DNA of 11,250 nucleotides from a virus (lineage: Monodnaviria; Loebvirae; Hofneiviricota; Faserviricetes; Tubulavirales; Inoviridae), in the IMG/VR virus record IMGVR_UViG_2663763400_000001; one strand, 5' to 3'. A program made the position numbers and the translations under genes. The notes below the pieces were generated by a model that saw only the letters and a program-made list of their open reading frames with translations, did no database searches and was not told the DNA's origin. Below, piece by piece: positions 411 through 10,984 of the stretch (its first letter is position 1; each line of letters starts with the position of its first letter).

Positions 411-438
411 ATTTAACATAATATACATTATGCGCACC
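411..438 (-). other. dif: dif chromosome-dimer resolution site (XerC/XerD target), serving as the left prophage junction
   Basis: Plus strand reads ATTTAACATAATATACATTATGCGCACC, the exact reverse complement of the 28-bp E. coli dif sequence as I recall it (GGTGCGCATAA-TGTATA-TTATGTTAAAT). XerD arm 411-421, central region 422-427, XerC arm 428-438. Confidence 0.85.
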
Positions 439-3882: not shown

Positions 3883-5595
3883 TTAGGCACTCAGAATAAT
3901 ACGGAGCGCAACAAATCCCCATATAATCAGAAATATGGTTTCTACGGCGCTTCTGTTCTGCTCAATTAACGGACAATGGGAGTCAATTCTGTACTGGTGA
4001 TTAAACACGCTGAATTCAACAACGGGGCAGGATGCTGAACGAGAGCCGATGTTAAATTCGTTTGTAAAAGGCAACAAGTTAATAATTGGCGTTAAAATAT
4101 CTCTTGCCGTTGGCGTTTCTTCAAGCTCAGGCTCTTTTACACCGGGATCTTCTCCCAAATCTATATTGCCATTATTTCCAGTGTCAGATCCTGAGTTGTT
4201 ATTAATGGTAATATCAATATTGACGTCAGCCCCTGCACTGTCAGATACAGGTGAAAGCATATCTAATAACGTTGGAGATAGCCTAAGTTCCGACATCGCA
4301 GAAGTTACTTCAGCCGGTGAAACCTCTTTAAACGGTAAGCCGTTATAATCGGCATTAACGGCAGCTTCAGACCACAGCTCGTTAATCATGTCGGCAAGAA
4401 GTGCTGGCGATACACTAACACTATCAAGATACTCCAGATAATCAATCATGGACTCAATATTTCCAGCCTCCAGTACTTCCGTCATGGCTTTATATTTGGT
4501 ATTGGTCCAGATAGTAAGCTCACTCTTTTCATCAATATCTTTTGCGGTGTAATCCTCTTTTTCAGGAACGGCACAAATCGTCGAATATCCACCATTTGAC
4601 TGATTAGTCGTTTTACAAGGCGTGTTGTGATACTGATATTGCTTTCCTGCTGTTAAATAAGCAACGCTGTAATACATGGGAAGCCCTGCTACATTTTCAT
4701 ACATGGGAATACCTGCGGGAAATGAAGATGCGGCCGGGTTGCTATACAAGTGTGTAATCTCAGGTATTTCATAAAATGAGGAAGGATAAGTAAACTTATA
4801 ATTCTGTTCAGTAAAGGATACATCTCCATTACTGTTGACAACTTTATTCGTCACAGTGCGTTCAAAATTCGTTAGTGTTTCAGTATAAGTACGCGAGTTA
4901 TAGTCATTAAGATAATTTCTGGCAATTTCAGTTGGATTATCACCATAGTAATAAATTAGCTCTTTCGAATCCTGATAATAATAAAGTGCATTATCTGGCG
5001 TGGAATATCCTGTTTCAACACCTACAACTGGAGAACCCGCATCCACATTATTACGACTAACATGAAGGATTACCGGACTTAATTCCTGTGGTTCAAAATT
5101 AACGGTTATCGTCTTACTTTCACCACTTTGACCACTGTACGTTACTTCATATAAATTATCGGAAATCTTTTTACCGTTAGTCATTACCATTACCGAGCCG
5201 TCAGATGAACTCAAAGAAGACGGAACAAAAGATGATACAGCAGCAGCAATACCCGCCCACGTTGCAACACCGCTCATTTTGTATGATGAGGCAGCAGGCA
5301 AGTATTCGGCAGCATTAGCCGCAGCGCGGCCAACAAAAACACGGGTTGCTGTAAGCTGTGATGCCGTATAAATCGCATCATTGGCAGCAAAGCGACGAAC
5401 AAGCACCCGGCCAACGACTTTAGGAATAACAGCCCGCGCAGCCACTGCTGCAATTGCTGGTACAAATGAATATGAATATCGGGGAAAGGAAACCCAGAGA
5501 AAGGAAAAAATAAAGGAATAAACCGTCAGCCTCTTAGCCCAAGAATAACGACATAAGCTGAGACGATCCCCCATAAAAGGGAACCCAATTTCCAT
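3883..5595 (-). CDS. pIII-like minor coat / host-adsorption protein (start codon uncertain; longest ORF 570 aa)
   Basis: Large ORF after the major coat gene with Gly/Ser/Asn-rich linker segments (for example NNNSGSDTGNNGNIDLGEDPGVKEPELEETP) and a C-terminal hydrophobic anchor (IFLIIWGFVALRIILSA), as in Ff pIII. The ATG at 5595 has GGAG 8 nt upstream. An alternative start at 5277 precedes a signal-peptide-like segment (MSGVATWAGIAAAVSSFV). Confidence 0.6.
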   Translation of the reverse strand: MEIGFPFMGDRLSLCRYSWAKRLTVYSFIFSFLWVSFPRYSYSFVPAIAAVAARAVIPKVVGRVLVRRFAANDAIYTASQLTATRVFVGRAAANAAEYLPAASSYKMSGVATWAGIAAAVSSFVPSSLSSSDGSVMVMTNGKKISDNLYEVTYSGQSGESKTITVNFEPQELSPVILHVSRNNVDAGSPVVGVETGYSTPDNALYYYQDSKELIYYYGDNPTEIARNYLNDYNSRTYTETLTNFERTVTNKVVNSNGDVSFTEQNYKFTYPSSFYEIPEITHLYSNPAASSFPAGIPMYENVAGLPMYYSVAYLTAGKQYQYHNTPCKTTNQSNGGYSTICAVPEKEDYTAKDIDEKSELTIWTNTKYKAMTEVLEAGNIESMIDYLEYLDSVSVSPALLADMINELWSEAAVNADYNGLPFKEVSPAEVTSAMSELRLSPTLLDMLSPVSDSAGADVNIDITINNNSGSDTGNNGNIDLGEDPGVKEPELEETPTARDILTPIINLLPFTNEFNIGSRSASCPVVEFSVFNHQYRIDSHCPLIEQNRSAVETIFLIIWGFVALRIILSA

Positions 5596-5618
5596 AATTC
5601 AATCTCCATAATAACCTC

Positions 5619-5646
5619 AAGTAAAACGGGCGATATTGCATCGCCC
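5619..5646 (-). terminator. Candidate intrinsic terminator or attenuator between the major coat gene and the pIII-like gene
   Basis: On the minus strand, GGGCGAT-GCAAT-ATCGCCC (7-bp GC-rich stem, 5628-5646) is followed by GUUUUACUU. Its position matches the known terminator downstream of gene VIII in Ff phages. Confidence 0.4.
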
Positions 5647-5659
5647 ATGAATAATGAAT

Positions 5660-5893
5660 TTATGCGGATTTAACGGTACGCAATACCCAGCGAACGCCAG
5701 CGACACCGGCATAAAGTGTTACCAGTGAAGCAGCAACGGCCATAATCGCAACCAGAACTGTACTGAAATCAATGCTGTTCGTCAGCGGCGATAAATCAAC
5801 ACCACTTGATGCCGCTCCTTCTGCAGCGAAAGTCGCGCCAGAAACAGCCATTAATGCAGGTACAGCCAGAAAACTAACGATTTTTTTAAACAT
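5660..5893 (-). CDS. Major coat protein (pVIII-like) precursor, 77 aa
   Basis: Signal peptide MFKKIVSFLAVPALMAVSGATFA, then a mature protein starting AEG... with an acidic N-terminus, a hydrophobic transmembrane core and a basic C-terminus (RWVLRTVKSA). This is the hallmark layout of inovirus major coat proteins; the M13 mature pVIII also starts AEG. GGAG ribosome-binding site 8 nt upstream. Confidence 0.8.
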   Translation of the reverse strand: MFKKIVSFLAVPALMAVSGATFAAEGAASSGVDLSPLTNSIDFSTVLVAIMAVAASLVTLYAGVAGVRWVLRTVKSA

Positions 5894-5927
5894 AACTCTA
5901 TCTCCATTACATTTTAAAGGTTCGCAT

Positions 5928-6179
5928 TCAAGCAGTACGAACCATCTTTATTACCTGTCCCACACCTACAGAAAAAAGCCAGAGCAGCAGGACAGAGCCA
6001 AAACCTAATGTCCAGTAATTTCCCATTGCAGAATAATCAATTTGATGAAATGGTTCAGAACGTACCATTATTGCCTGACATTCTTTTGCATTGTTCGCAT
6101 TACATAAATAACCTTCAATACGGTAACCATTTTCAGGAATATGATTATCAAACTGAATATCGAAACCTGATGCATCCAT
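5928..6179 (-). CDS. Small membrane protein, 83 aa, in the position of Ff minor coat proteins pVII/pIX
   Basis: ORF between the putative ssDNA-binding gene and the major coat gene. It has a C-terminal hydrophobic helix (YWTLGFGSVLLLWLFSVGVGQVI). The start is tightly spaced after the upstream stop (TGATTATG). Confidence 0.5.
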   Translation of the reverse strand: MDASGFDIQFDNHIPENGYRIEGYLCNANNAKECQAIMVRSEPFHQIDYSAMGNYWTLGFGSVLLLWLFSVGVGQVIKMVRTA

Positions 6180-6181
6180 AA

Positions 6182-6499
6182 TCAGCCTTTTATTTCAGTA
6201 ATGCCGCCATCTGATGAAATGTTATAAGTTACTCCTTCCCTCCCCTCCATTGACCAGACGCGAACATATACAGGTATCTGGACTAACTTACCGATAAAAT
6301 TATTTGCCTGATTCATTACACCGGCATTAACAAGAGCCTGAGATACACGAATAATAATCTGGTCTTGCTTAGTGCCGCCAAAACCATCAGGAATCTCTAA
6401 GCCAACACCAATTTCATTATAGTATCCCTGACCATTGACCTTATTACGCTGGCGAGCACCAAGCATTTTACCTTTTACAAAAAGACCATAATTAGACAT
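6182..6499 (-). CDS. Putative ssDNA-binding protein (gene V equivalent, by position and size), 105 aa
   Basis: Small ORF immediately downstream of the replication initiator gene, with a strong AAGGAG Shine-Dalgarno that overlaps the initiator stop codon. The assignment is positional; I could not confirm sequence similarity to Ff gV by eye. Confidence 0.45.
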   Translation of the reverse strand: MSNYGLFVKGKMLGARQRNKVNGQGYYNEIGVGLEIPDGFGGTKQDQIIIRVSQALVNAGVMNQANNFIGKLVQIPVYVRVWSMEGREGVTYNISSDGGITEIKG

Positions 6500-6510
6500 A
6501 TCACTCTCCT

Positions 6511-7563
6511 TTAATGCCAGTTACTGGCATGTGAAATACGGTTATAATCGAAAATTAAACCTTTCTCATAAACCCATGATGGAATTTTGGCTGGTTTGGC
6601 TTCAAGAGTACGAACCAACGGAACAACGTTATTAGAATCCGGTGACTCACAATAAAAGTTAATATCTATTCCGAAAGAAAGTAATTCTTTACGGTGTCGG
6701 TAGAATGTAGGTTTCGGTAACATCTCTTTCATGTTCGCGCCCTGCTTCCACAATAAATATGTAGACTGTATTTTTCTTGGGAGATTAATTATTTTTTCAT
6801 CAGTTAATATAGTATTTTGATTCATTTCTATTCTCCCTACATAGTCAGAGAATAATTTATTGGGCGTCTCAATATTCCAGCTATTACCAAGCGTAAGATT
6901 CAAATCAATTAATTCAGTTGTTCTTAATGTTAATTCAATGCGTAATTTATCTTTTGACCAGTCCAGTAAACCAGCTTTAACGAATTCGTCTGCCATCTGG
7001 TGCCCTTTTTTGCCAGATGTATGCTCATCATATTTTGAATAAAATTTCAGGCTCCAACGACGGGAGTTTTTCCCTAAGTAAACAGTGCCACCTTTACCAC
7101 AGGCGCGACCGTGGCGAGTTTTAGCTTTAAATTCTGCGGCATATAACCATGCGCGGACATTTTCTAATGTTGACAATGAATACATGTAATTGATATCGAT
7201 GCGCGAGATCTTAAATTGCCCTTCCATGACCTGCCGATAGGATGGTAGATCATGAGGAATATGCAGTAATGCCAATATTCTGGCGTAAGCTGTTAACACC
7301 AACCCTTGCAAATCGTCGGAACCGATAACAGAGTGACCTTGCAAAAACTTTGATGGATTACCGTCAATGTAGAGATGTGTTGCCCGACCTTCACCATCAG
7401 ATCCAACAGACCTTACTTTCATTGTGGACTCATGCGAACCGCGAACGGTCAACCGTTTTACTGTTTCCCACTCCACTGCACCGTCAGCATCGACGCTGAC
7501 GACACTACCAGCCGGTAACGGTCGGTGTGTGCAAGGCAGGATTCCGGTAAACCAGTCGATCAT
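6511..7563 (-). CDS. Rolling-circle replication initiation protein (pII / RstA-like), 350 aa
   Basis: First gene of the minus-strand phage operon, about 350 aa with N-terminus MIDWFTGILP... Size, position and divergent arrangement with an HTH repressor match the replication initiators of integrating filamentous phages. Confidence 0.75.
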   Translation of the reverse strand: MIDWFTGILPCTHRPLPAGSVVSVDADGAVEWETVKRLTVRGSHESTMKVRSVGSDGEGRATHLYIDGNPSKFLQGHSVIGSDDLQGLVLTAYARILALLHIPHDLPSYRQVMEGQFKISRIDINYMYSLSTLENVRAWLYAAEFKAKTRHGRACGKGGTVYLGKNSRRWSLKFYSKYDEHTSGKKGHQMADEFVKAGLLDWSKDKLRIELTLRTTELIDLNLTLGNSWNIETPNKLFSDYVGRIEMNQNTILTDEKIINLPRKIQSTYLLWKQGANMKEMLPKPTFYRHRKELLSFGIDINFYCESPDSNNVVPLVRTLEAKPAKIPSWVYEKGLIFDYNRISHASNWH

Positions 7564-7734
7564 AAGTAGTCACACCCATCAAAATATGTGTCAATAGTCA
7601 TTTGTGAGCAGATTGAATGGTCACAATGTAATATGCTCAGTTCTGACAGTCAATACATTTGCAATGTTTAAATTGTCAGAAATGAGCATCAAATCTAACT
7701 ATTGAAAAACCACTGTTAAGATGGAGCCAAGTAG
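7564..7734. promoter_or_regulatory. Divergent intergenic control region between the replication gene and the repressor gene (candidate promoters and operators)
   Basis: Non-coding 171-bp AT-rich spacer. The minus strand has a candidate sigma70 promoter toward the replication gene (-35 TTGACT at 7653-7648, 17-bp spacer, -10 TACATT at 7630-7625). The + strand has a TG-TAATAT element at 7627-7634. Repeated GTCAATA (7590-7596, 7649-7655) and TGTCA/TGACA motifs are present. Confidence 0.5.
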
Positions 7735-8181
7735 ATGGGCAACAATGAGCATGAAGTTATGGCGGACAAACAGAGAGCAGAACGTATCAAAAAGGTAATT
7801 CTGGAACACTCGACTTATGAAGAACTGGCCGAGAAGACTGGCATTAGCGTGAGTACGCTGGTCAGGATAGCGTCCGGCAAAACTGAACCTAAATTCAGTG
7901 ACATCATTCAGATAGCTAAAATTACGGGTGCAGACTTAAACACCTTAGCTTATGGCTATGCTCTTGATGTTAAAGAAGAAGCTACCGAGCGGAAGCTAAT
8001 CACTTCTGCGGATGGATATACTGATGAAGAAACCACTAACGCACATAATTTCATCGTGTGGAACATCAGGACACTGGAAAAACAAGATATTCTGGCACTC
8101 GCAAGGCAGGTTTCTGCCTTAAGTTCATACACTTACAGTACTAAAATGTTTATGAAAAAAGCGGTGTCTGGAGAAGAGTAA
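7735..8181 (+). CDS. XRE-family helix-turn-helix transcriptional regulator (phage repressor, RstR-like), 148 aa
   Basis: Contains a Cro/C1-type HTH (YEELAEKTGISVSTLVRIASGKT...IAKITGADLNTLAYG). Transcribed divergently from the replication initiator. GGAG ribosome-binding site 8 nt upstream of the ATG at 7735. Confidence 0.8.
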   Translation: MGNNEHEVMADKQRAERIKKVILEHSTYEELAEKTGISVSTLVRIASGKTEPKFSDIIQIAKITGADLNTLAYGYALDVKEEATERKLITSADGYTDEETTNAHNFIVWNIRTLEKQDILALARQVSALSSYTYSTKMFMKKAVSGEE

Positions 8182-8210
8182 AAGGATTAACAGTCTCAGG
8201 AATGAGACAA

Positions 8211-8246
8211 ACGTGCAGTATTACCAACACTGCACGTTCTTTATTG
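8211..8246 (+). terminator. Candidate intrinsic terminator downstream of the repressor gene
   Basis: ACGTGCAGT (8211-8219), 9-nt loop, ACTGCACGT (8229-8237), followed by TCTTTATTG. Confidence 0.4.
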
Positions 8247-8280
8247 TGCGAATTTTGAACAGTGAAAAAGGATCAAAAGG

Positions 8281-8703
8281 ATGAGTAGAAATAACGAAAC
8301 AAGCGGCGTTGAACTGGTTGTCGTGGGCGTATTTGCTTTCTGTCTGGCAGTTGTTGCCTGGCTAATGAAAACTTTCGATGTTGAATGGCAAACAGCGCTG
8401 GAAACTGCGCCTGGCCTGATAGTGTGGCTGCTTGTTGTCGGGGCGGGGATCTTTTTCGGGATCAAAATGGAAACAGGCCTTGTTCGCTGGGGTGCTCCAC
8501 TGGCGATCGCCCTTCTGATTCCGGTATTCAAACCAATTCTTAAGGAAGCTGCCGGAGTTCGTGAAACGGGTGGGCTGGTTTTCGATGATATGGTTTCGTG
8601 GTACGGAACTGGCTGGGGAATGTCGTTGATGTTTTTCGGAATTCTTATCATCGGATACGGGATGCTTTATTGGTGGCACAGAAGAAATTCATATTACTGG
8701 TAA
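8281..8703 (+). CDS. Hypothetical polytopic inner-membrane protein, 140 aa (cargo gene 1)
   Basis: About four hydrophobic helices (VELVVVGVFAFCLAVVAWLM, GLIVWLLVVGAGIFFGI, APLAIALLIPVF, MSLMFFGILIIGYGMLYWW). AAGGA ribosome-binding site 8 nt upstream. The antisense ORFs 8241..8651 and 8362..8679 are Pro/Ser/Thr/Arg-rich, typical of the reverse strand of a hydrophobic gene. Confidence 0.6.
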   Translation: MSRNNETSGVELVVVGVFAFCLAVVAWLMKTFDVEWQTALETAPGLIVWLLVVGAGIFFGIKMETGLVRWGAPLAIALLIPVFKPILKEAAGVRETGGLVFDDMVSWYGTGWGMSLMFFGILIIGYGMLYWWHRRNSYYW

Positions 8704-8731
8704 TCAATAAAACGTAGAAGAGAGGAAATAT

Positions 8732-9007
8732 ATGAAACTGAATCCTGAGAAATACAATAGAAATATCACCCTGCTATGTCCTGTGTGCGGAAATACAGAG
8801 ATGGAACACGAGGAAGAGTCTGAAGTCGTCAGATGTGTAGGCTGCGGGAAAGAATTCACTAATGATGAGTTAATCCAAGAAAACGGGGTGAGTATTGACG
8901 CCCATGTGGATGAGATAAAAGAAGAGTTAACAAAAGATATTCAAAAACAGTTTAACGACATGCTCAAAAAGGCATTTAAAGGAAGTAAAAATATAAGGAT
9001 TAAATAA
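8732..9007 (+). CDS. Hypothetical zinc-ribbon protein, 91 aa (cargo gene 2)
   Basis: CPVCG and CVGCG motifs 17 residues apart (CxxC-x17-CxxC), followed by an acidic/Lys-rich tail. AGAGGA Shine-Dalgarno upstream of the ATG at 8732. AT-rich codon usage. Confidence 0.6.
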   Translation: MKLNPEKYNRNITLLCPVCGNTEMEHEEESEVVRCVGCGKEFTNDELIQENGVSIDAHVDEIKEELTKDIQKQFNDMLKKAFKGSKNIRIK

Positions 9008-9486
9008 TGACAACAAGTGATGCCATCGCTTTAGCTGCGCTTGTAGTATCGATTTACACTATCATATCATCAGAAGTGAAGTCGAGAAAAAGTGATAGAG
9101 AACAAAAGGTTATAAAGGATGAGCAAGACAGATTACGTAAGTTGCTTCTGGAAAAAGAAACAAAGTCAGCAATTAATGAGATGAAGGCTGAGCTTGGTGC
9201 CCGCCTCGTAAAAATAGCCAAAAACAACTATAGACTCAAGATATTTAATAGAGGGAAAGTTGAGGCTAAAAATATAGAGATTCATTTCCCTGATAACGAT
9301 GGCAATGAATATCTTTCCATGCATGATGTAGAAGATAAATTTCCATATGAAGTATTACACCCGCAACATGGGATTGAAATTTTAGCGGGACTAAGCTTTG
9401 GAAGCAAAACTAAATACCGAATAAAACTCATATGGGATGACAATTATAAAAAAAGGAATGAAGAGGAGTTTTTCATTTCTATATAA
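9007..9486 (+). CDS. Hypothetical membrane-anchored protein with a charged coiled-coil-like segment, 159 aa (cargo gene 3)
   Basis: The start overlaps the upstream stop as TAATG (9005-9009). N-terminal hydrophobic anchor (AIALAALVVSIYTIIS), then a highly charged K/E/R-rich helical segment, then a C-terminal region rich in aromatic and beta-type residues. Visibly AT-rich. Confidence 0.6.
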   Translation: MTTSDAIALAALVVSIYTIISSEVKSRKSDREQKVIKDEQDRLRKLLLEKETKSAINEMKAELGARLVKIAKNNYRLKIFNRGKVEAKNIEIHFPDNDGNEYLSMHDVEDKFPYEVLHPQHGIEILAGLSFGSKTKYRIKLIWDDNYKKRNEEEFFISI

Positions 9487-9516
9487 ATTGGTTCGCACAA
9501 TGACGTTATGCTAAAG

Positions 9517-9553
9517 AGGCCGCTGCGGGATACGATTTTCGCAGCGGCCTTTT
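9517..9553 (+). terminator. Candidate intrinsic terminator of the + strand cargo operon, directly abutting the right junction site
   Basis: AGGCCGCTGCG (9517-9527), 12-nt loop, CGCAGCGGCCT (9540-9550), followed by TTT. It is flanked upstream by AAAG, so it could act in both directions. Confidence 0.5.
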
Positions 9554-9583
9554 CAACATAACGAGTCGTACATTATGCGCACC
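9552..9583 (-). other. Hybrid dif-like site forming the right prophage junction: dif XerC arm plus a phage-derived expanded central region and XerD-like arm
   Basis: In dif orientation it reads GGTGCGCATAA (perfect XerC arm, 9583-9573), then TGTACGACTCG (11 bp instead of the 6-bp TGTATA), then TTATGTTGAAA (9 of 11 identical to the dif XerD arm TTATGTTAAAT). It shares 15 contiguous nt with the true dif at 424-438. Confidence 0.65.
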
Positions 9584-9661
9584 AACATAAACCAAGGGAG
9601 AATCCAGTCGTTGGCGGTTCATGATTGTTCTGCTCATTAACAACGACCAAAACCCCATATC

Positions 9662-10984
9662 TTACTTAATACCGTATTCTCGGCTTAACCGACCGTGCAA
9701 CCTCAACACATTGGTTTCAACTGCCGTCACCACGTTCTCCGGAAAATCTGTCGGTAATGAAGTCTTCACGTTATCCAGTGCTGCCGGAATCATTCTGGCA
9801 AAGTCACTCAGGATTTCATGCATCTGCACTTCCGGGAATTTCAGCACCTTTGCTGTCGCCAGAAAATGTCGCGGATAAATTTTATCGATTGCCGTTTTTT
9901 TGCCTTTGGATGCGTTAAGCCCCATTGCCAGTTTGAGATCGCTGATGTGTATTCCCGTACCGCCAAGGACCGGAAATGCCGAAATGATGTCATAAAATGG
10001 TGTGAGCCGATAACTGCCGCCAGCCTGAATAAATACGGAGAAGTTTTTTGCATGGCCATCTGTTGCGCCAATCAACCACTGGAAGACCTGAAACTTCATA
10101 AAATCATAGCGATCTTTCAGCGCCTCGCTGGACCCCATCAAAAAAGCCATAATTTGCGCGATACCGGGGCCTCCATCTGATTCATATTTCACCGATGAAG
10201 GTAAACCGAATGTCTGGCACATATCCTCCTGTGGCAAGCGAAGTAAAACCGTTCGCTCAGTATTCCAACGCCTGTCAAAACGTTTGACCGCTAACGCGCG
10301 CACCCTTCCCGCTTTAATGATTTCTGCGTCCGGAACATTCAACCCGAGTTCTTTCGCCAGCAGCAAACAGTAATACTCATTATCAACGCTTTGGCTAAGA
10401 TCGAGCGTCGCATTGGGCTGTCTGATTTCGCCAATCGGCAATTTGATAATGTGCGTCGTTGGCGTTATTCCCTTCGGAATGCACCAGTCATTGCCTATTC
10501 TGAGCAGCGCAGTCTTCTCCTGTGCGCCAGCAACCGAGATGCGAAAGTCATTTTCTTCTCTAATCATGCCTAACGGGATATCTGCTTTATAAGCCGTTAA
10601 TACTTCTTCAAGTCTGGCTTCAGTAAGCTTTTCCCATGCCATTATCGGACACATTACGGTTTCATCTTCGGGGATTAACGTCACGGCACCAACGCTGTCT
10701 CGCCCTATTTCTGACAATAAATCAAACGGTTGTCTGGATTTAGCATGATAACGTTTAACGATCCGGTCACGTACAATCGGGCTATCGGGTAACAGGTTAT
10801 CGAAGAAGTTAAATACGGCATCAGAGGTGATATTCCTCCTCTGCAATGGCAGCGAAAGTGACAACGGTCTGGCATAACGGCTGGCTAACCACTCAGGTGC
10901 ATACTTAAAGGTGTGCGCGCCGTTGGCTAACTTCGTTAACTCGCCTACCCGCTGGTTGTTCATCCAAGTGACTAGTTTAGGCAT
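9662..10984 (-). CDS. hipA: HipA serine/threonine kinase toxin of the HipBA type II toxin-antitoxin system, 440 aa
   Basis: From the ATG at 10982-10984 the product MPKLVTWMNNQRVGELTKLANGAHTFKYAPEWLASRYARPLSLSLPLQR... matches E. coli HipA essentially along its length, from memory. The start overlaps the hipB stop by 1 nt. The longer ORF reaching 11041 is an upstream in-frame extension into hipB. Confidence 0.95.
   Translation of the reverse strand: MPKLVTWMNNQRVGELTKLANGAHTFKYAPEWLASRYARPLSLSLPLQRRNITSDAVFNFFDNLLPDSPIVRDRIVKRYHAKSRQPFDLLSEIGRDSVGAVTLIPEDETVMCPIMAWEKLTEARLEEVLTAYKADIPLGMIREENDFRISVAGAQEKTALLRIGNDWCIPKGITPTTHIIKLPIGEIRQPNATLDLSQSVDNEYYCLLLAKELGLNVPDAEIIKAGRVRALAVKRFDRRWNTERTVLLRLPQEDMCQTFGLPSSVKYESDGGPGIAQIMAFLMGSSEALKDRYDFMKFQVFQWLIGATDGHAKNFSVFIQAGGSYRLTPFYDIISAFPVLGGTGIHISDLKLAMGLNASKGKKTAIDKIYPRHFLATAKVLKFPEVQMHEILSDFARMIPAALDNVKTSLPTDFPENVVTAVETNVLRLHGRLSREYGIK

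Follow-up and report, generated by a model that had tools for sequence, protein, structure and literature searches.

The terminal genes of a filamentous prophage integrated at dif, a short AT-rich pair lying just inside the attachment site, raise the question of whether they belong to the phage or were acquired separately, and of what they might do for the elements that carry them. The window analyzed here, a stretch of 11,250 nucleotides, contains both prophage junctions and adjoining host DNA. A first-pass annotation had read the pair as compositionally distinct and translationally coupled, joining a small metal-binding protein to an anchored coiled-coil protein within a cargo cassette, and some of these claims had to be revised.

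The carrier prophage and its terminal gene pair

The carrier is a dif-integrated (IMEX-type) filamentous prophage of ~9.14 kb, and in locus L001 the prophage copies stand in tandem with a repeat unit of 9144 bp. Pfam domains identified in the carrier were Phage_CRI, G2P_X_C, Putative_G5P, Zot and Secretin. Judged by an inovirus gene set of Rep II/X, G5P, coat, pIII-like, Zot/pI and secretin genes and by integration at dif, these domains, the exact dif at the left junction, the dif half-site next to hipA and the tandem copies assign the carrier to the CUS-1/YpfPhi-like dif-integrating inoviruses. Host DNA on the hipA side begins at ~9569, the position from which phage-free E. coli genomes match the window. 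The features at and between the junctions are:

411..438, minus strand: dif site at the left prophage junction; exact match to the 28-bp E. coli dif, none expected by chance
8281..8703, plus strand: gene for a 140-aa protein with four hydrophobic segments; matches phrog_4174 (E 3e-85), which has no function annotated
8704..8731, plus strand: leader of the cassette; includes GAGAGGA (8720-8726), the Shine-Dalgarno sequence of the zinc-ribbon gene; from sequence
8732..9007, plus strand: encodes the zinc-ribbon protein, a cytoplasmic ECs_2282-family member of 91 aa; open reading frame and NF047912 match
9005..9009, plus strand: stop/start overlap TAATG (TAA 9005-9007, ATG 9007-9009)
9007..9486, plus strand: gene for a 159-aa partner protein with an anchor helix, a charged helix and a beta-sandwich; open reading frame and AF2 model
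9487..9560, plus strand: 'right handle', located after the stop codon of every cargo variant; ~93% identical copies elsewhere
9490-9516, plus strand: degenerate Xer-like site GGTTCGCACAATGACGTTATGCTAAAG in the right handle; from sequence
9518-9553, plus strand: GC-rich, terminator-like hairpin with a T run in the right handle; from sequence
9570..9583, minus strand: right prophage junction, the XerC-arm half of dif (GGTGCGCATAATGT on the minus strand); from sequence

The right handle also holds TTTTCAACATA, and single-stranded DNA of 9484-9596 is predicted to fold with -28.2 kcal/mol (z -6.6), pairing the dif half-site at 9570..9583 with 9490-9516.

Both same-strand open reading frames of the pair, 8732-9007 (91 aa) and 9007-9486 (159 aa), are present, and the sequence agrees with the TAATG overlap of their stop and start codons, an arrangement that would couple their translation. 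The Shine-Dalgarno sequence of the partner gene (AAGGA, 8995-8999) lies inside the tail codons of the zinc-ribbon gene. Lack of co-occurrence in other genomes had been named as grounds for abandoning the pair as a unit, and the opposite was observed: of the species-level loci from Gamma-, Alphaproteobacteria and others that were recovered with the second protein, 28/28 have the zinc-ribbon gene next to the partner on its upstream side, with TAATG/TGATG/ATGA-type overlaps or gaps of at most ~25 nt in all of them. ECs_2282-type zinc-ribbon genes of E. coli and Proteus, encoding 93 aa, are followed in the same manner by a 157-aa gene with a 1-nt overlap. Additionally, dN/dS values of 0.02-0.05 for the pair, and of 0.025-0.027 for the zinc-ribbon gene in comparisons with L040 and L009, show strong purifying selection.

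A gap of 28 nt, in which no terminator was found, separates the pair from the 140-aa gene, and a plus-strand promoter scan of 7500-9700 identified no sigma-70-like site. The 140-aa gene is probably the first of a transcription unit shared with the pair, which may be expressed in the lysogen by read-through transcription of the backbone operon as far as the hairpin (9518-9553).

Acquisition and exchange of the cassette

Base composition was the original argument for a separate acquisition, and it stood only in part. The windowed GC calculation confirmed a discontinuity with the upstream membrane-protein gene (0.359 for the pair vs 0.485), whereas the difference from the phage core was marginal: the core has a mean GC of 0.42, its 755-bp windows average 0.423 with an sd of 0.030, placing the pair ~2 sd low, and a core stretch at 6293-7047 is equally AT-rich (0.356). 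The shift falls mostly on codon position 2 (GC2 0.25/0.28), as in K/E/N/I-rich proteins. Because the GC3 of the pair (0.40/0.33) falls within that of the core (0.25-0.45), a foreign origin does not follow from composition alone, and the GC argument for separate acquisition is weakly supported.

These GC3 values and the AT-rich core stretch would be compatible with ordinary backbone genes that owe their AT-richness to amino-acid composition, with no separate acquisition. That reading, which we regard as extremely improbable, is already refuted by alignment with sister prophages. CUS-1/YpfPhi-like dif prophages that are ~98% identical on both flanks of the cassette carry other genes in place of the pair, encoding an AbiJ-like protein, a REase-like protein with DUF6953, or uncharacterized products. 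Homology to sister prophages L002-L005 stops at a left breakpoint of 8703-8710 and returns from 9479-9487, and homology to pair-carrying loci of other genera begins at 8715-8756. Amongst 81 E. coli genomes with at least 80% of window positions 5600-9620, only 28 have the pair. As the pair also occurs outside the inoviruses, in unrelated plasmids, IS elements and islands, its acquisition apart from the phage, as first suggested, was upheld by comparative data and not by composition.

The upstream membrane-protein gene, which had been counted as part of the cargo cassette, is present in all four cargo variants with ~98% DNA identity; judged from these alignments, it is phage backbone and lies outside the swapped cassette. 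The same genome comparisons show 8704-9560 to be a discrete, horizontally exchanged accessory cassette, and the cargo slot between the backbone gene and the attachment site is multi-allelic with exact breakpoints. Copies of the right handle, ~93% identical, are located behind SIR2, AbiJ-like and zinc-ribbon/partner cargo in ISKpn21-like elements and in sister prophages.

The module was also identified on 93 plasmids, 85 of them conjugative, including a subtype on ColV-like IncF plasmids near iss. ISKpn21-type insertion sequences belong to the ISAba32 subgroup of the IS1202 family; ISKpn21 is reported to insert beside dif/xrs sites with a 'hypothetical protein' gene as passenger (bioRxiv 10.1101/2022.12.17.520857). 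Homologous modules in Klebsiella, Serratia and E. coli are passengers of such ISKpn21-like (IS1202-family, Xer-site-targeting) transposons, flanked by the transposase gene on one side and the right inverted repeat on the other; modules of that subtype include a third gene. This position was encountered in L040, L041 and L044-L049, and the inverted repeats of L049 are at 5119-5138 and 7973-7992. Unlike these elements, the window lacks a transposase, a search for the IS inverted repeat allowing up to 3 mismatches found none, and the tIS left handle was absent by eye from 8181-8281 and 8704-8731; the cargo and the 74-bp right handle are all that the window has in common with them. New here are the exact breakpoints of the multi-allelic slot and the contents that it has in common with ISKpn21-like elements.

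The pair is also located in integrase islands beside RM systems, with tyrosine integrases or P4-like functions in the islands of E. coli and Proteus, and the family, comprising ~1,300 sequence clusters across Proteobacteria, extends to environmental Pseudomonas, Xanthomonas, Sphingomonas, Marinobacter and Caulobacter. Searches of GenBank phages by megablast and tblastn with the cassette and both proteins returned nothing, and IMG/VR contributed only five loci, three of them near-identical inovirus genomes of ~8.7 kb. Altogether, these observations make it very probable that the locus contains a mobile, separately acquired and obligate gene pair.

The recurrence of the pair in users of Xer sites (the dif prophage and the ISKpn21-like IS), always followed by a handle with an Xer-like site, could also indicate a factor that serves the mobile elements themselves, through anti-defense or establishment, exclusion of related elements, or help with Xer-linked integration or transposition. 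The presence of ardA next to the pair in an E. coli island and of psiA ~6.5 kb away on pKP13f would be in agreement with such a role. However, the same position in sister IS and prophages is occupied by unrelated SIR2, AbiJ-like or REase-like genes, and the pair is thus not needed for movement. Most of the 28 loci have no IS1202-type transposase among their neighbors, and the E. coli and Proteus islands use the other integration functions mentioned above, all of which makes a mobile-element factor quite unlikely.

Predicted structures of the two proteins

The metal-binding assignment of the first protein was corroborated by NCBIfam model NF047912 ('ECs_2282 family putative zinc-binding protein'), matched over profile positions 1-60 of 60 with 65.2 bits (E 3.6e-18) against a curated cut-off of 37 bits. 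This score and a CxxC...CxxC core place the protein in the ECs_2282 family, and an identical protein carries the RefSeq name ECs_2282 family putative zinc-binding protein. Its motif, CPxCG...CxxCG, contains the four Cys residues of the ribbon (C16, C19, C35, C38), which are invariant columns in family alignment A2, and is followed by a long helix (44-87). The AF2 model likewise consists of a zinc ribbon and a single helix (pLDDT 77). The C-terminal tail AFKGSKNIRIK is conserved and basic/hydrophobic, with the consensus AF+G[SN]Kx[IF][KR][IF][KR]; it is conserved across taxa at the protein level, while the codons differ. Amongst other matches, phrog_4852 was hit with E 8e-18, over profile positions 1-82 of 194 only. 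Sequence searches of solved structures returned only generic ribbons such as eS27, aIF2-beta, TFIIB/E and LysW, and Foldseek of the model against the PDB gave nothing below E 0.3.

The partner has the N-terminal hydrophobic helix expected of an anchored protein (~residues 6-24, Kyte-Doolittle 19-residue maximum 1.97), and its membrane insertion is predicted. In 29/29 aligned family members there are no K/R residues before this helix and 3-6 after it; hydropathy and charge together predict membrane anchoring in an N-out/C-in orientation, with a cytoplasmic beta-sandwich. The charged helix, which extends up to residue 59, carries an invariant LLLEKE-type motif, and the AF2 model assigns residues 63-158 to the C-terminal beta-sandwich. 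The partner had been described as a coiled-coil protein, a reading excluded by heptad analysis and the AF2 model: at most 30% of a/d positions in helix 25-59 are hydrophobic in any heptad register, and the C-terminal 95 residues form the beta-sandwich. The model is that of a beta-sandwich on a helical stalk.

The best fold matches of the beta-sandwich include peptide-motif-binding domains (alpha-adaptin appendage, GAE, MSP), and Foldseek against BFVD identified three uncharacterized phage proteins with TM-scores of ~0.5. By sequence, the partner matched phrog_6723, which has no function annotated, over 159/159 positions (E 1.2e-95), with no match in Pfam or NCBIfam, none in PADLOC-DB at E up to 0.1, and nothing meaningful among solved structures. 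A holin/antiholin lysis pair was considered in view of a partial holin-like match (phrog_1350 over partner residues 1-63, E 0.006) and was rejected: the match is weak, the carrier is a non-lytic inovirus, and there is no lysis cassette, an endolysin being absent from the window as well as from the related loci.

Candidate functions and comparison with known systems

Several observations associate the pair with defense genes. Among the other alleles of the slot are AbiJ_NTD4+DUF7014 (PDC-S32) and a REase_DpnII-MboI protein that resembles Aga_Helical-REase, and sister ISKpn21-like elements have a SIR2 or AbiJ-like gene where the pair would sit. Next to the pair elsewhere are found, among others, a type III-like RM system, type I RM with Mrr, a SIR2/ThsA-like protein with type I RM, a CBASS cyclase accompanied by a 2TM effector, Old and, at two loci, GajB. 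The association is nevertheless moderate, since neighbors at many of the 28 loci are ordinary or unannotated and 7 of the 10 large neighbors examined had no defense match. The zinc-ribbon domain matches internal segments of the single-gene PADLOC candidates PDC-S64 (E 4e-7) and HEC-08, and the protein has a weak match to PDC-M14A (E 0.002); PADLOC-DB v2.0.0 contains no single system whose component models both proteins match. The pair was not described in the literature on ECs_2282, PDC-S64 or zinc-ribbon/transmembrane two-gene defense systems.

The layout of the pair fits both of the module types first proposed, toxin/immunity and sensor/effector. In the homologous module of at least two E. 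coli prophages, FDAARGOS_1302 and MS8345, the zinc-ribbon gene is cleanly deleted (~251 nt), while the partner gene and its Shine-Dalgarno sequence are intact (dN/dS 0.095 vs the plasmid copy). Because this natural deletion leaves the partner intact, which argues against an essential antitoxin, sensor/effector is the better of the two layouts, and an activator or sensor role suits the zinc-ribbon protein better than that of an antitoxin.

The pair may be a conflict module of the anti-phage or abortive-infection/exclusion type, in which the zinc-ribbon protein would act as a cytoplasmic sensor or regulator. Tethered to the membrane, the partner would receive the conserved, strand-like C-terminal tail of the zinc-ribbon protein on its cytoplasmic beta-sandwich and would serve as effector, for example by oligomerizing at the inner membrane once triggered, although one anchor helix gives little ground for proposing an effector that disrupts membranes. 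A defense function with this sensor/effector division of labor is put forward tentatively. The larger proposal, of a widespread and previously unrecognized two-protein anti-phage or abortive-infection system, in which a zinc-ribbon sensor controls a membrane-tethered effector via its tail and a handle-bounded cargo pool links IS1202-family transposons with dif phages, is a more doubtful one.

Among abortive-infection systems that join a cytoplasmic sensor to a membrane effector, lambda RexA/RexB is a prophage-borne, co-expressed combination of a soluble protein and an inner-membrane protein, and Cap15-type effectors of CBASS have a membrane anchor fused to a small beta-domain. The likeness of the pair to either is a working analogy only, as neither RexA/B nor Cap15 has a sequence or fold match to it. 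RexB is a multi-pass protein whereas the partner has one anchor helix, and the pair has no cyclase or other signal generator linked to it.

Several of the same observations could be accommodated by a type II-like toxin-antitoxin module, with the zinc-ribbon protein as labile antitoxin and the partner as membrane-acting toxin, that stabilizes the prophage, plasmids and IS-borne islands. The small regulator comes first, both proteins are small, the genes overlap by 1 nt, the locations are mobile elements (including the 85 conjugative plasmids), and in Klebsiella the module adjoins ParDE and TacAT modules. Weak MqsA/YgiT-type zinc-finger similarities (TIGR03830, E 1e-3, 18.9 vs a cut-off of 61.8 bits; TIGR03831, E 0.025; structure 3gn5 in the Foldseek search of the PDB) and the holin-like match of the partner point in the same direction. 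MqsA-type antitoxins are likewise small proteins with an N-terminal four-Cys zinc ribbon and are encoded first in a two-gene operon, but the zinc-ribbon protein scores far below the MqsA cut-offs and has no C-terminal HTH, and the partner is not an MqsR/RelE-fold RNase. Profiles and the AF2 model revealed no HTH, RHH or other DNA-binding domain that could serve autoregulation, the partner is unlike known toxin families, and no TA family was found at cut-off in Pfam or NCBIfam. Together with the conserved, intact partner in the FDAARGOS_1302 and MS8345 modules, which provides an indirect test, these results make a toxin-antitoxin module unlikely.

Toxins and modest effects on virulence are the usual topics when filamentous prophages at dif are discussed. 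The pair could be a lysogenic-conversion factor that alters host physiology or virulence, for example through envelope or stress signaling. This would be in line with the modest effects on fitness that have been reported in CUS-1 and YpfPhi, members of a prophage family linked to in vivo fitness (PMC4266046). The att-adjacent ORF pairs of these phages (orf1/orf1a; YPO2271/YPO2272) have no known function and differ between YpfPhi and CUS-1 (PMC4266046). They share with the pair its phage lineage, with matching backbone families (Phage_CRI/G2P, G5P, Zot, secretin), and its position, beyond an RstR-like repressor and beside the dif junction, and the zinc-ribbon/beta-sandwich pair is not described there. 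Pair-positive E. coli are mostly human isolates, and the location of the plasmid subtype near iss would also be compatible with conversion. On the other hand, neither protein has a secretion signal, the predicted topology is in or facing the cytoplasm, and the spread of the family in the environmental genera listed above is a poor fit to host-specific virulence, so that lysogenic conversion is very unlikely.

With regard to the slot as a whole, one position of a dif filamentous prophage appears to behave like the P2/P4 hotspots in which temperate phages and their satellites carry defense genes (Rousset et al. 2022, PMC9122126), which likewise consist of a fixed backbone slot with alternative small cassettes, and its alleles are common to insertion sequences homing to the same Xer sites. 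Several cassettes carry defense-type domains (AbiJ-like and REase-like, and SIR2 in sister IS). Unlike in the P2/P4 hotspots, the carrier is a non-lytic dif-integrating inovirus and the defense role of the cargo is putative. If the pair is a defense system, a very small and widespread family would be added to the immune repertoire, and lysogeny by an inovirus would bring a concrete benefit to the host. If the shared cargo pool is real, the chromosome terminus (dif) region would be a trading post for defense genes. With thousands of E. coli and Klebsiella genomes to draw on, handle-flanked cassettes would also offer a simple route to further candidate systems. Should its function not be defense, the pair would still be among the larger uncharacterized obligate gene pairs on enterobacterial mobile elements, and it includes the passenger of clinically common ISKpn21-like elements.

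Carrier prophage and position of the gene pair

The window is E. coli chromosome in which a filamentous prophage (an inovirus) is inserted at dif. The phage core lies on the minus strand and encodes secretin, Zot/pI, DUF2523, pIII-like, coat, G5P and Rep II/X proteins (Pfam). The plus strand carries, in order, a repressor gene, a gene for a 140-aa protein, the zinc-ribbon gene, its partner gene, a strong hairpin and the attachment site. The pair is placed for co-transcription with the 140-aa membrane gene and for termination at the hairpin.

Features of the prophage around the gene pair
411-438, dif, exact 28 bp
7735-8181 (+), RstR-like HTH repressor
8281-8703 (+), backbone gene for a 140-aa protein with four hydrophobic segments, phrog_4174 (unknown function)
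8704-8731, cassette leader
8732-9007 (+), zinc-ribbon gene, 91 aa
9007-9486 (+), partner gene, 159 aa
9487-9560, right handle
9570-9583, dif half-site, directly before hipA and hipB

The match of phage-free E. coli genomes to the window begins at 9569. Organisation and position are the same as in CUS-1/YpfPhi, whose att-adjacent ORFs have been described as of unknown function and as differing in content between phages (PMC4266046). Related genomes hold the prophage in tandem, its copies lying head-to-tail at dif with a unit of 9144 bp (L001, E. coli FDAARGOS_1303); in the single genome of strain EC5502 the pair is present in up to 16 copies.

Between the repressor and 140-aa genes, a hairpin with a 9-bp stem (ACGTGCAGT...ACTGCACGT) followed by a T-rich run (8211-8237) may act as a terminator or attenuator; it was missed by the scan because its loop is 9 nt. 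A 136-aa ORF antisense to the 140-aa gene (8241-8651, minus strand) is probably spurious.

Linkage and separate acquisition of the pair

The two ORFs reported by the first-pass annotation were recovered, with their stop and start codons overlapping as TAATG at 9005-9009. Close relatives numbered 72 for the partner protein and 97 for the zinc-ribbon protein, and a partner-profile search of 1.84 billion representative proteins returned 1,276 clusters. Nearly all of the best 150 of these were about 150-160 aa long, the shorter ones looking like fragments, and no fusion to another domain was found among them.

Whether the two genes occur together elsewhere was examined by scanning one genome per species with the partner profile. 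This yielded 28 loci from Enterobacterales, Xanthomonas, Stenotrophomonas, Pseudomonas, Caulobacter, Sphingomonas, Marinobacter, Halomonas and others, and a zinc-ribbon homologue lay immediately upstream on the same strand in every one (28/28), joined by a TAATG, TGATG or ATGA overlap or lying no more than about 25 nt from the partner gene. The refuting condition named beforehand, that the two genes are never found together in other genomes, thus clearly fails. More distant 93-aa zinc-ribbon genes of the ECs_2282 type (E. coli, Proteus) are likewise followed by a 157-aa gene with a 1-base overlap. Against copies about 82% identical in DNA, dN/dS was 0.02-0.05 for both genes, which are under strong purifying selection. 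The module was also seen on contigs of two metagenome-assembled genomes, labelled Candidatus Nanosynbacter (Saccharibacteria; L006) and Methanoculleus (archaeal; L025). One copy is of enterobacterial type, at 97% identity and accompanied by inovirus Rep and G5P, and the other of proteobacterial type; both contigs most likely represent binning contamination.

The pair was present in only 28 of the 81 E. coli genomes that covered at least 80% of a 4-kb query running from Rep to the attachment site. Identity between the window and four sister prophages is about 98% up to 8703-8710, at the stop codon of the 140-aa gene, and about 97-99% again from 9479-9487, at the stop codon of the partner gene, except that the alignment of L004 picks up only at 9548. 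Other genes lie in between:

Cargo alleles of the sister prophages
Allele 1, REase_DpnII-MboI-domain protein and DUF6953
Allele 2, AbiJ_NTD4+DUF7014 protein of the STM4504/CBY_0614 family
Allele 3, 155-aa and 123-aa pair
Allele 4, 89-aa and 240-aa pair

Two of these alternative alleles contain defence-type domains, one matching PADLOC PDC-S32 and the other Aga_Helical-REase/PDC-S35. The breakpoints therefore define an exchangeable unit of exactly the leader and the two genes. The 140-aa membrane gene, which had been drawn into the cargo cassette, belongs by these alignments to the backbone common to the sister prophages, and it is conserved across all cargo variants. Altogether, the pair is a coupled unit with an acquisition history of its own, as had been proposed, and it is also mobile and obligately linked; the original reason for the proposal of separate acquisition, base composition, proved weak.

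The pair is indeed AT-rich relative to the gene just upstream (GC 0.359 versus 0.485), but its contrast with the phage core is slight. Mean GC across the phage is 0.42 (0.423 in 755-bp windows, sd 0.030), and the core stretch 6293-7047, at 0.356, is AT-rich to the same degree. The G5P gene and the 3' (C-terminal-coding) part of Rep (6293-7050) show GC of 0.31-0.36 in 300-bp windows, like the pair, so low GC is not peculiar to cargo in this phage. The drop in the pair falls mainly at codon position 2 (0.25 and 0.28), reflecting the high K, E, N and I content of both proteins, and GC3 (0.40 and 0.33) stays within the core range of 0.25-0.45. The computed profile thus neither proves nor refutes separate acquisition.

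A handle common to phage and IS cargo

Every cargo allele, in phage and IS alike, has a right handle of about 74 bp immediately after its stop codon. This handle was found after unrelated cargo (the pair, SIR2, AbiJ-like) in CUS-1-like prophages and in ISKpn21-like transposons, and is followed in turn by the right inverted repeat in IS elements and by the dif half-site in the phage.

Parts of the right handle, and copies in other loci
9490-9516, degenerate Xer-like site GGTTCGCACAATGACGTTATGCTAAAG
Second part, GC-rich hairpin with T run
Third part, TTTTCAACATA
Copies, L042 5001-5074; L043 4001-4071; L041 5167-5293; L049 7901-7972

Over a thousand E. coli records carry the handle; 1832 records matched a handle-carrying query, most of them only over the handle segment or the adjacent host flank. 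Terminator, Xer site and recombination handle are its candidate roles. As single-stranded DNA, 9484-9596 is predicted to form a long hairpin with imperfect pairing (-28.2 kcal/mol, z -6.6) in which the Xer-like site pairs with the junction dif half-site. This fold recalls the folded attP(+) of CTXphi and suggests that this phage lineage may integrate in single-stranded form.

IS elements also have in common a left handle after the transposase stop codon, about 40 nt of which are kept in sister prophage L003; neither a transposase nor an IS repeat was found in the window. On an 8.3-kb contig of Izhakiella australiensis (L013 6889-6915), the IS-type left handle lies upstream, not downstream, of the 140-aa-gene homologue, so that in some lineages this gene and the pair may move together in a cassette of three genes.

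Within the IS1202 family, ISKpn21 is placed in the ISAba32 subgroup, whose members insert 5-6 bp from Xer recombination sites, chromosomal dif included, and a hypothetical passenger gene has been reported for ISKpn21 (bioRxiv 10.1101/2022.12.17.520857). On plasmids and chromosomes of Klebsiella, Serratia and E. coli, the module lies directly 3' of an 'ISNCY/ISKpn21 family' transposase gene and inside the inverted repeats of the element (L049 5119-5138 and 7973-7992). This plasmid/ISKpn21 subtype has a conserved third gene of 123-127 aa (L039 7511-7879, L041 4798-5169, L044-L049 7517-7900), with no family match except weak PDC-S57 hits; the two-gene subtype of the window is without it. In sister IS copies the passenger position is held by SIR2 (L042 2330-5130, Ecol_545; ISNCY), a copy adjoining dif and hipA in E. 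coli, or by the same AbiJ-like STM4504/CBY_0614 gene as in the sister prophage (L043 1436-4126, an ISKpn21-like (ISNCY) element on plasmid pEC244_2). With one IS carrying a defence-type passenger beside dif, the E. coli dif region thus collects defence-type cargo through two kinds of element. The carrier with its variable att-adjacent ORFs, Xer-targeting IS elements with passengers, and prophage defence hotspots were already known; no description of cargo and handle common to ISKpn21-like elements and CUS-1-like phages was found in the literature, and this link through cargo exchange between two types of mobile element associated with dif is a further yield of the analysis.

Protein anatomy and possible function

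The first protein is a four-Cys zinc ribbon, as annotated, scoring 65.2 bits against the curated cut-off of 37 for NCBIfam NF047912 ('ECs_2282 family putative zinc-binding protein'), a named but uncharacterised family; both proteins fall in PHROGs of unknown function. Its model (overall pLDDT 77) shows the ribbon at residues 13-43, then a long helix at 44-87 and a tail modelled with low confidence. With the sequence AF+G[SN]Kx[IF][KR][IF][KR], this tail ranks with the most conserved regions of the family; high-GC genomes encode it with quite different codons, so conservation acts at the protein level.

The partner had been read as an anchored coiled coil. No heptad pattern was found in the charged part of its helix, and the model (pLDDT 85) is instead one helix (3-59) followed by a beta-sandwich (63-158). 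The first ~19 residues of the helix are hydrophobic and the rest is highly charged, with an invariant LLLEKE-type motif. In 29/29 partner family members examined, no K/R precedes the hydrophobic segment and 3-6 follow it, a pattern that predicts an N-out/C-in topology with the beta-sandwich in the cytoplasm. Both proteins are proposed to work on the cytoplasmic side of the inner membrane, with the zinc-ribbon protein probably touching the beta-sandwich of its partner through the strand-like tail. Beyond generic zinc ribbons, no solved or annotated relatives of either protein were found, nor was a description of the pair as a unit or of its structure found in the literature. PADLOC-DB v2.0.0 does not contain the pair, giving only partial zinc-ribbon matches to PDC-S64, HEC-08 and PDC-M14A.

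A conflict function is pointed to by the defence-type alleles in the slot and defence-type passengers in sister IS, and, at some loci, by neighbouring RM, Gabija, CBASS, SIR2 and Old genes. At species level the defence-type neighbours included SIR2/ThsA-like with type I RM, GajB (two loci), a CBASS cyclase with a 2TM effector, and Old; others were resolvases, MobA relaxases and integrases, and 7 of the 10 large neighbours tested had no defence match. The pair also comes after a type III-like RM cluster, or after type I RM with Mrr, in integrase or P4-like islands found in E. coli and Proteus. In PLSDB a homologue is on 93 plasmids, 85 of them conjugative. Judged from sequence and context, the pair may be an anti-phage or abortive-infection-type sensor/effector, a tentative assignment to which we give somewhat less than an even chance; the main yield is a concrete, easily testable candidate module.

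The zinc-ribbon protein could alternatively be an essential antitoxin, a reading hard to reconcile with the plasmid-type three-gene module of sister prophage L003 (4605-5600; E. coli FDAARGOS_1302, with an identical region in MS8345). There the zinc-ribbon gene has been lost through a clean deletion of ~251 nt that left '...KHIRVK*' and the Shine-Dalgarno sequence, yet the 155-aa partner (hhalign probability 100%; dN/dS 0.095 versus the plasmid copy) and the 123-aa third gene are intact. The deletion fits easily with a role as sensor or activator, where losing the protein would do no more than inactivate the system.
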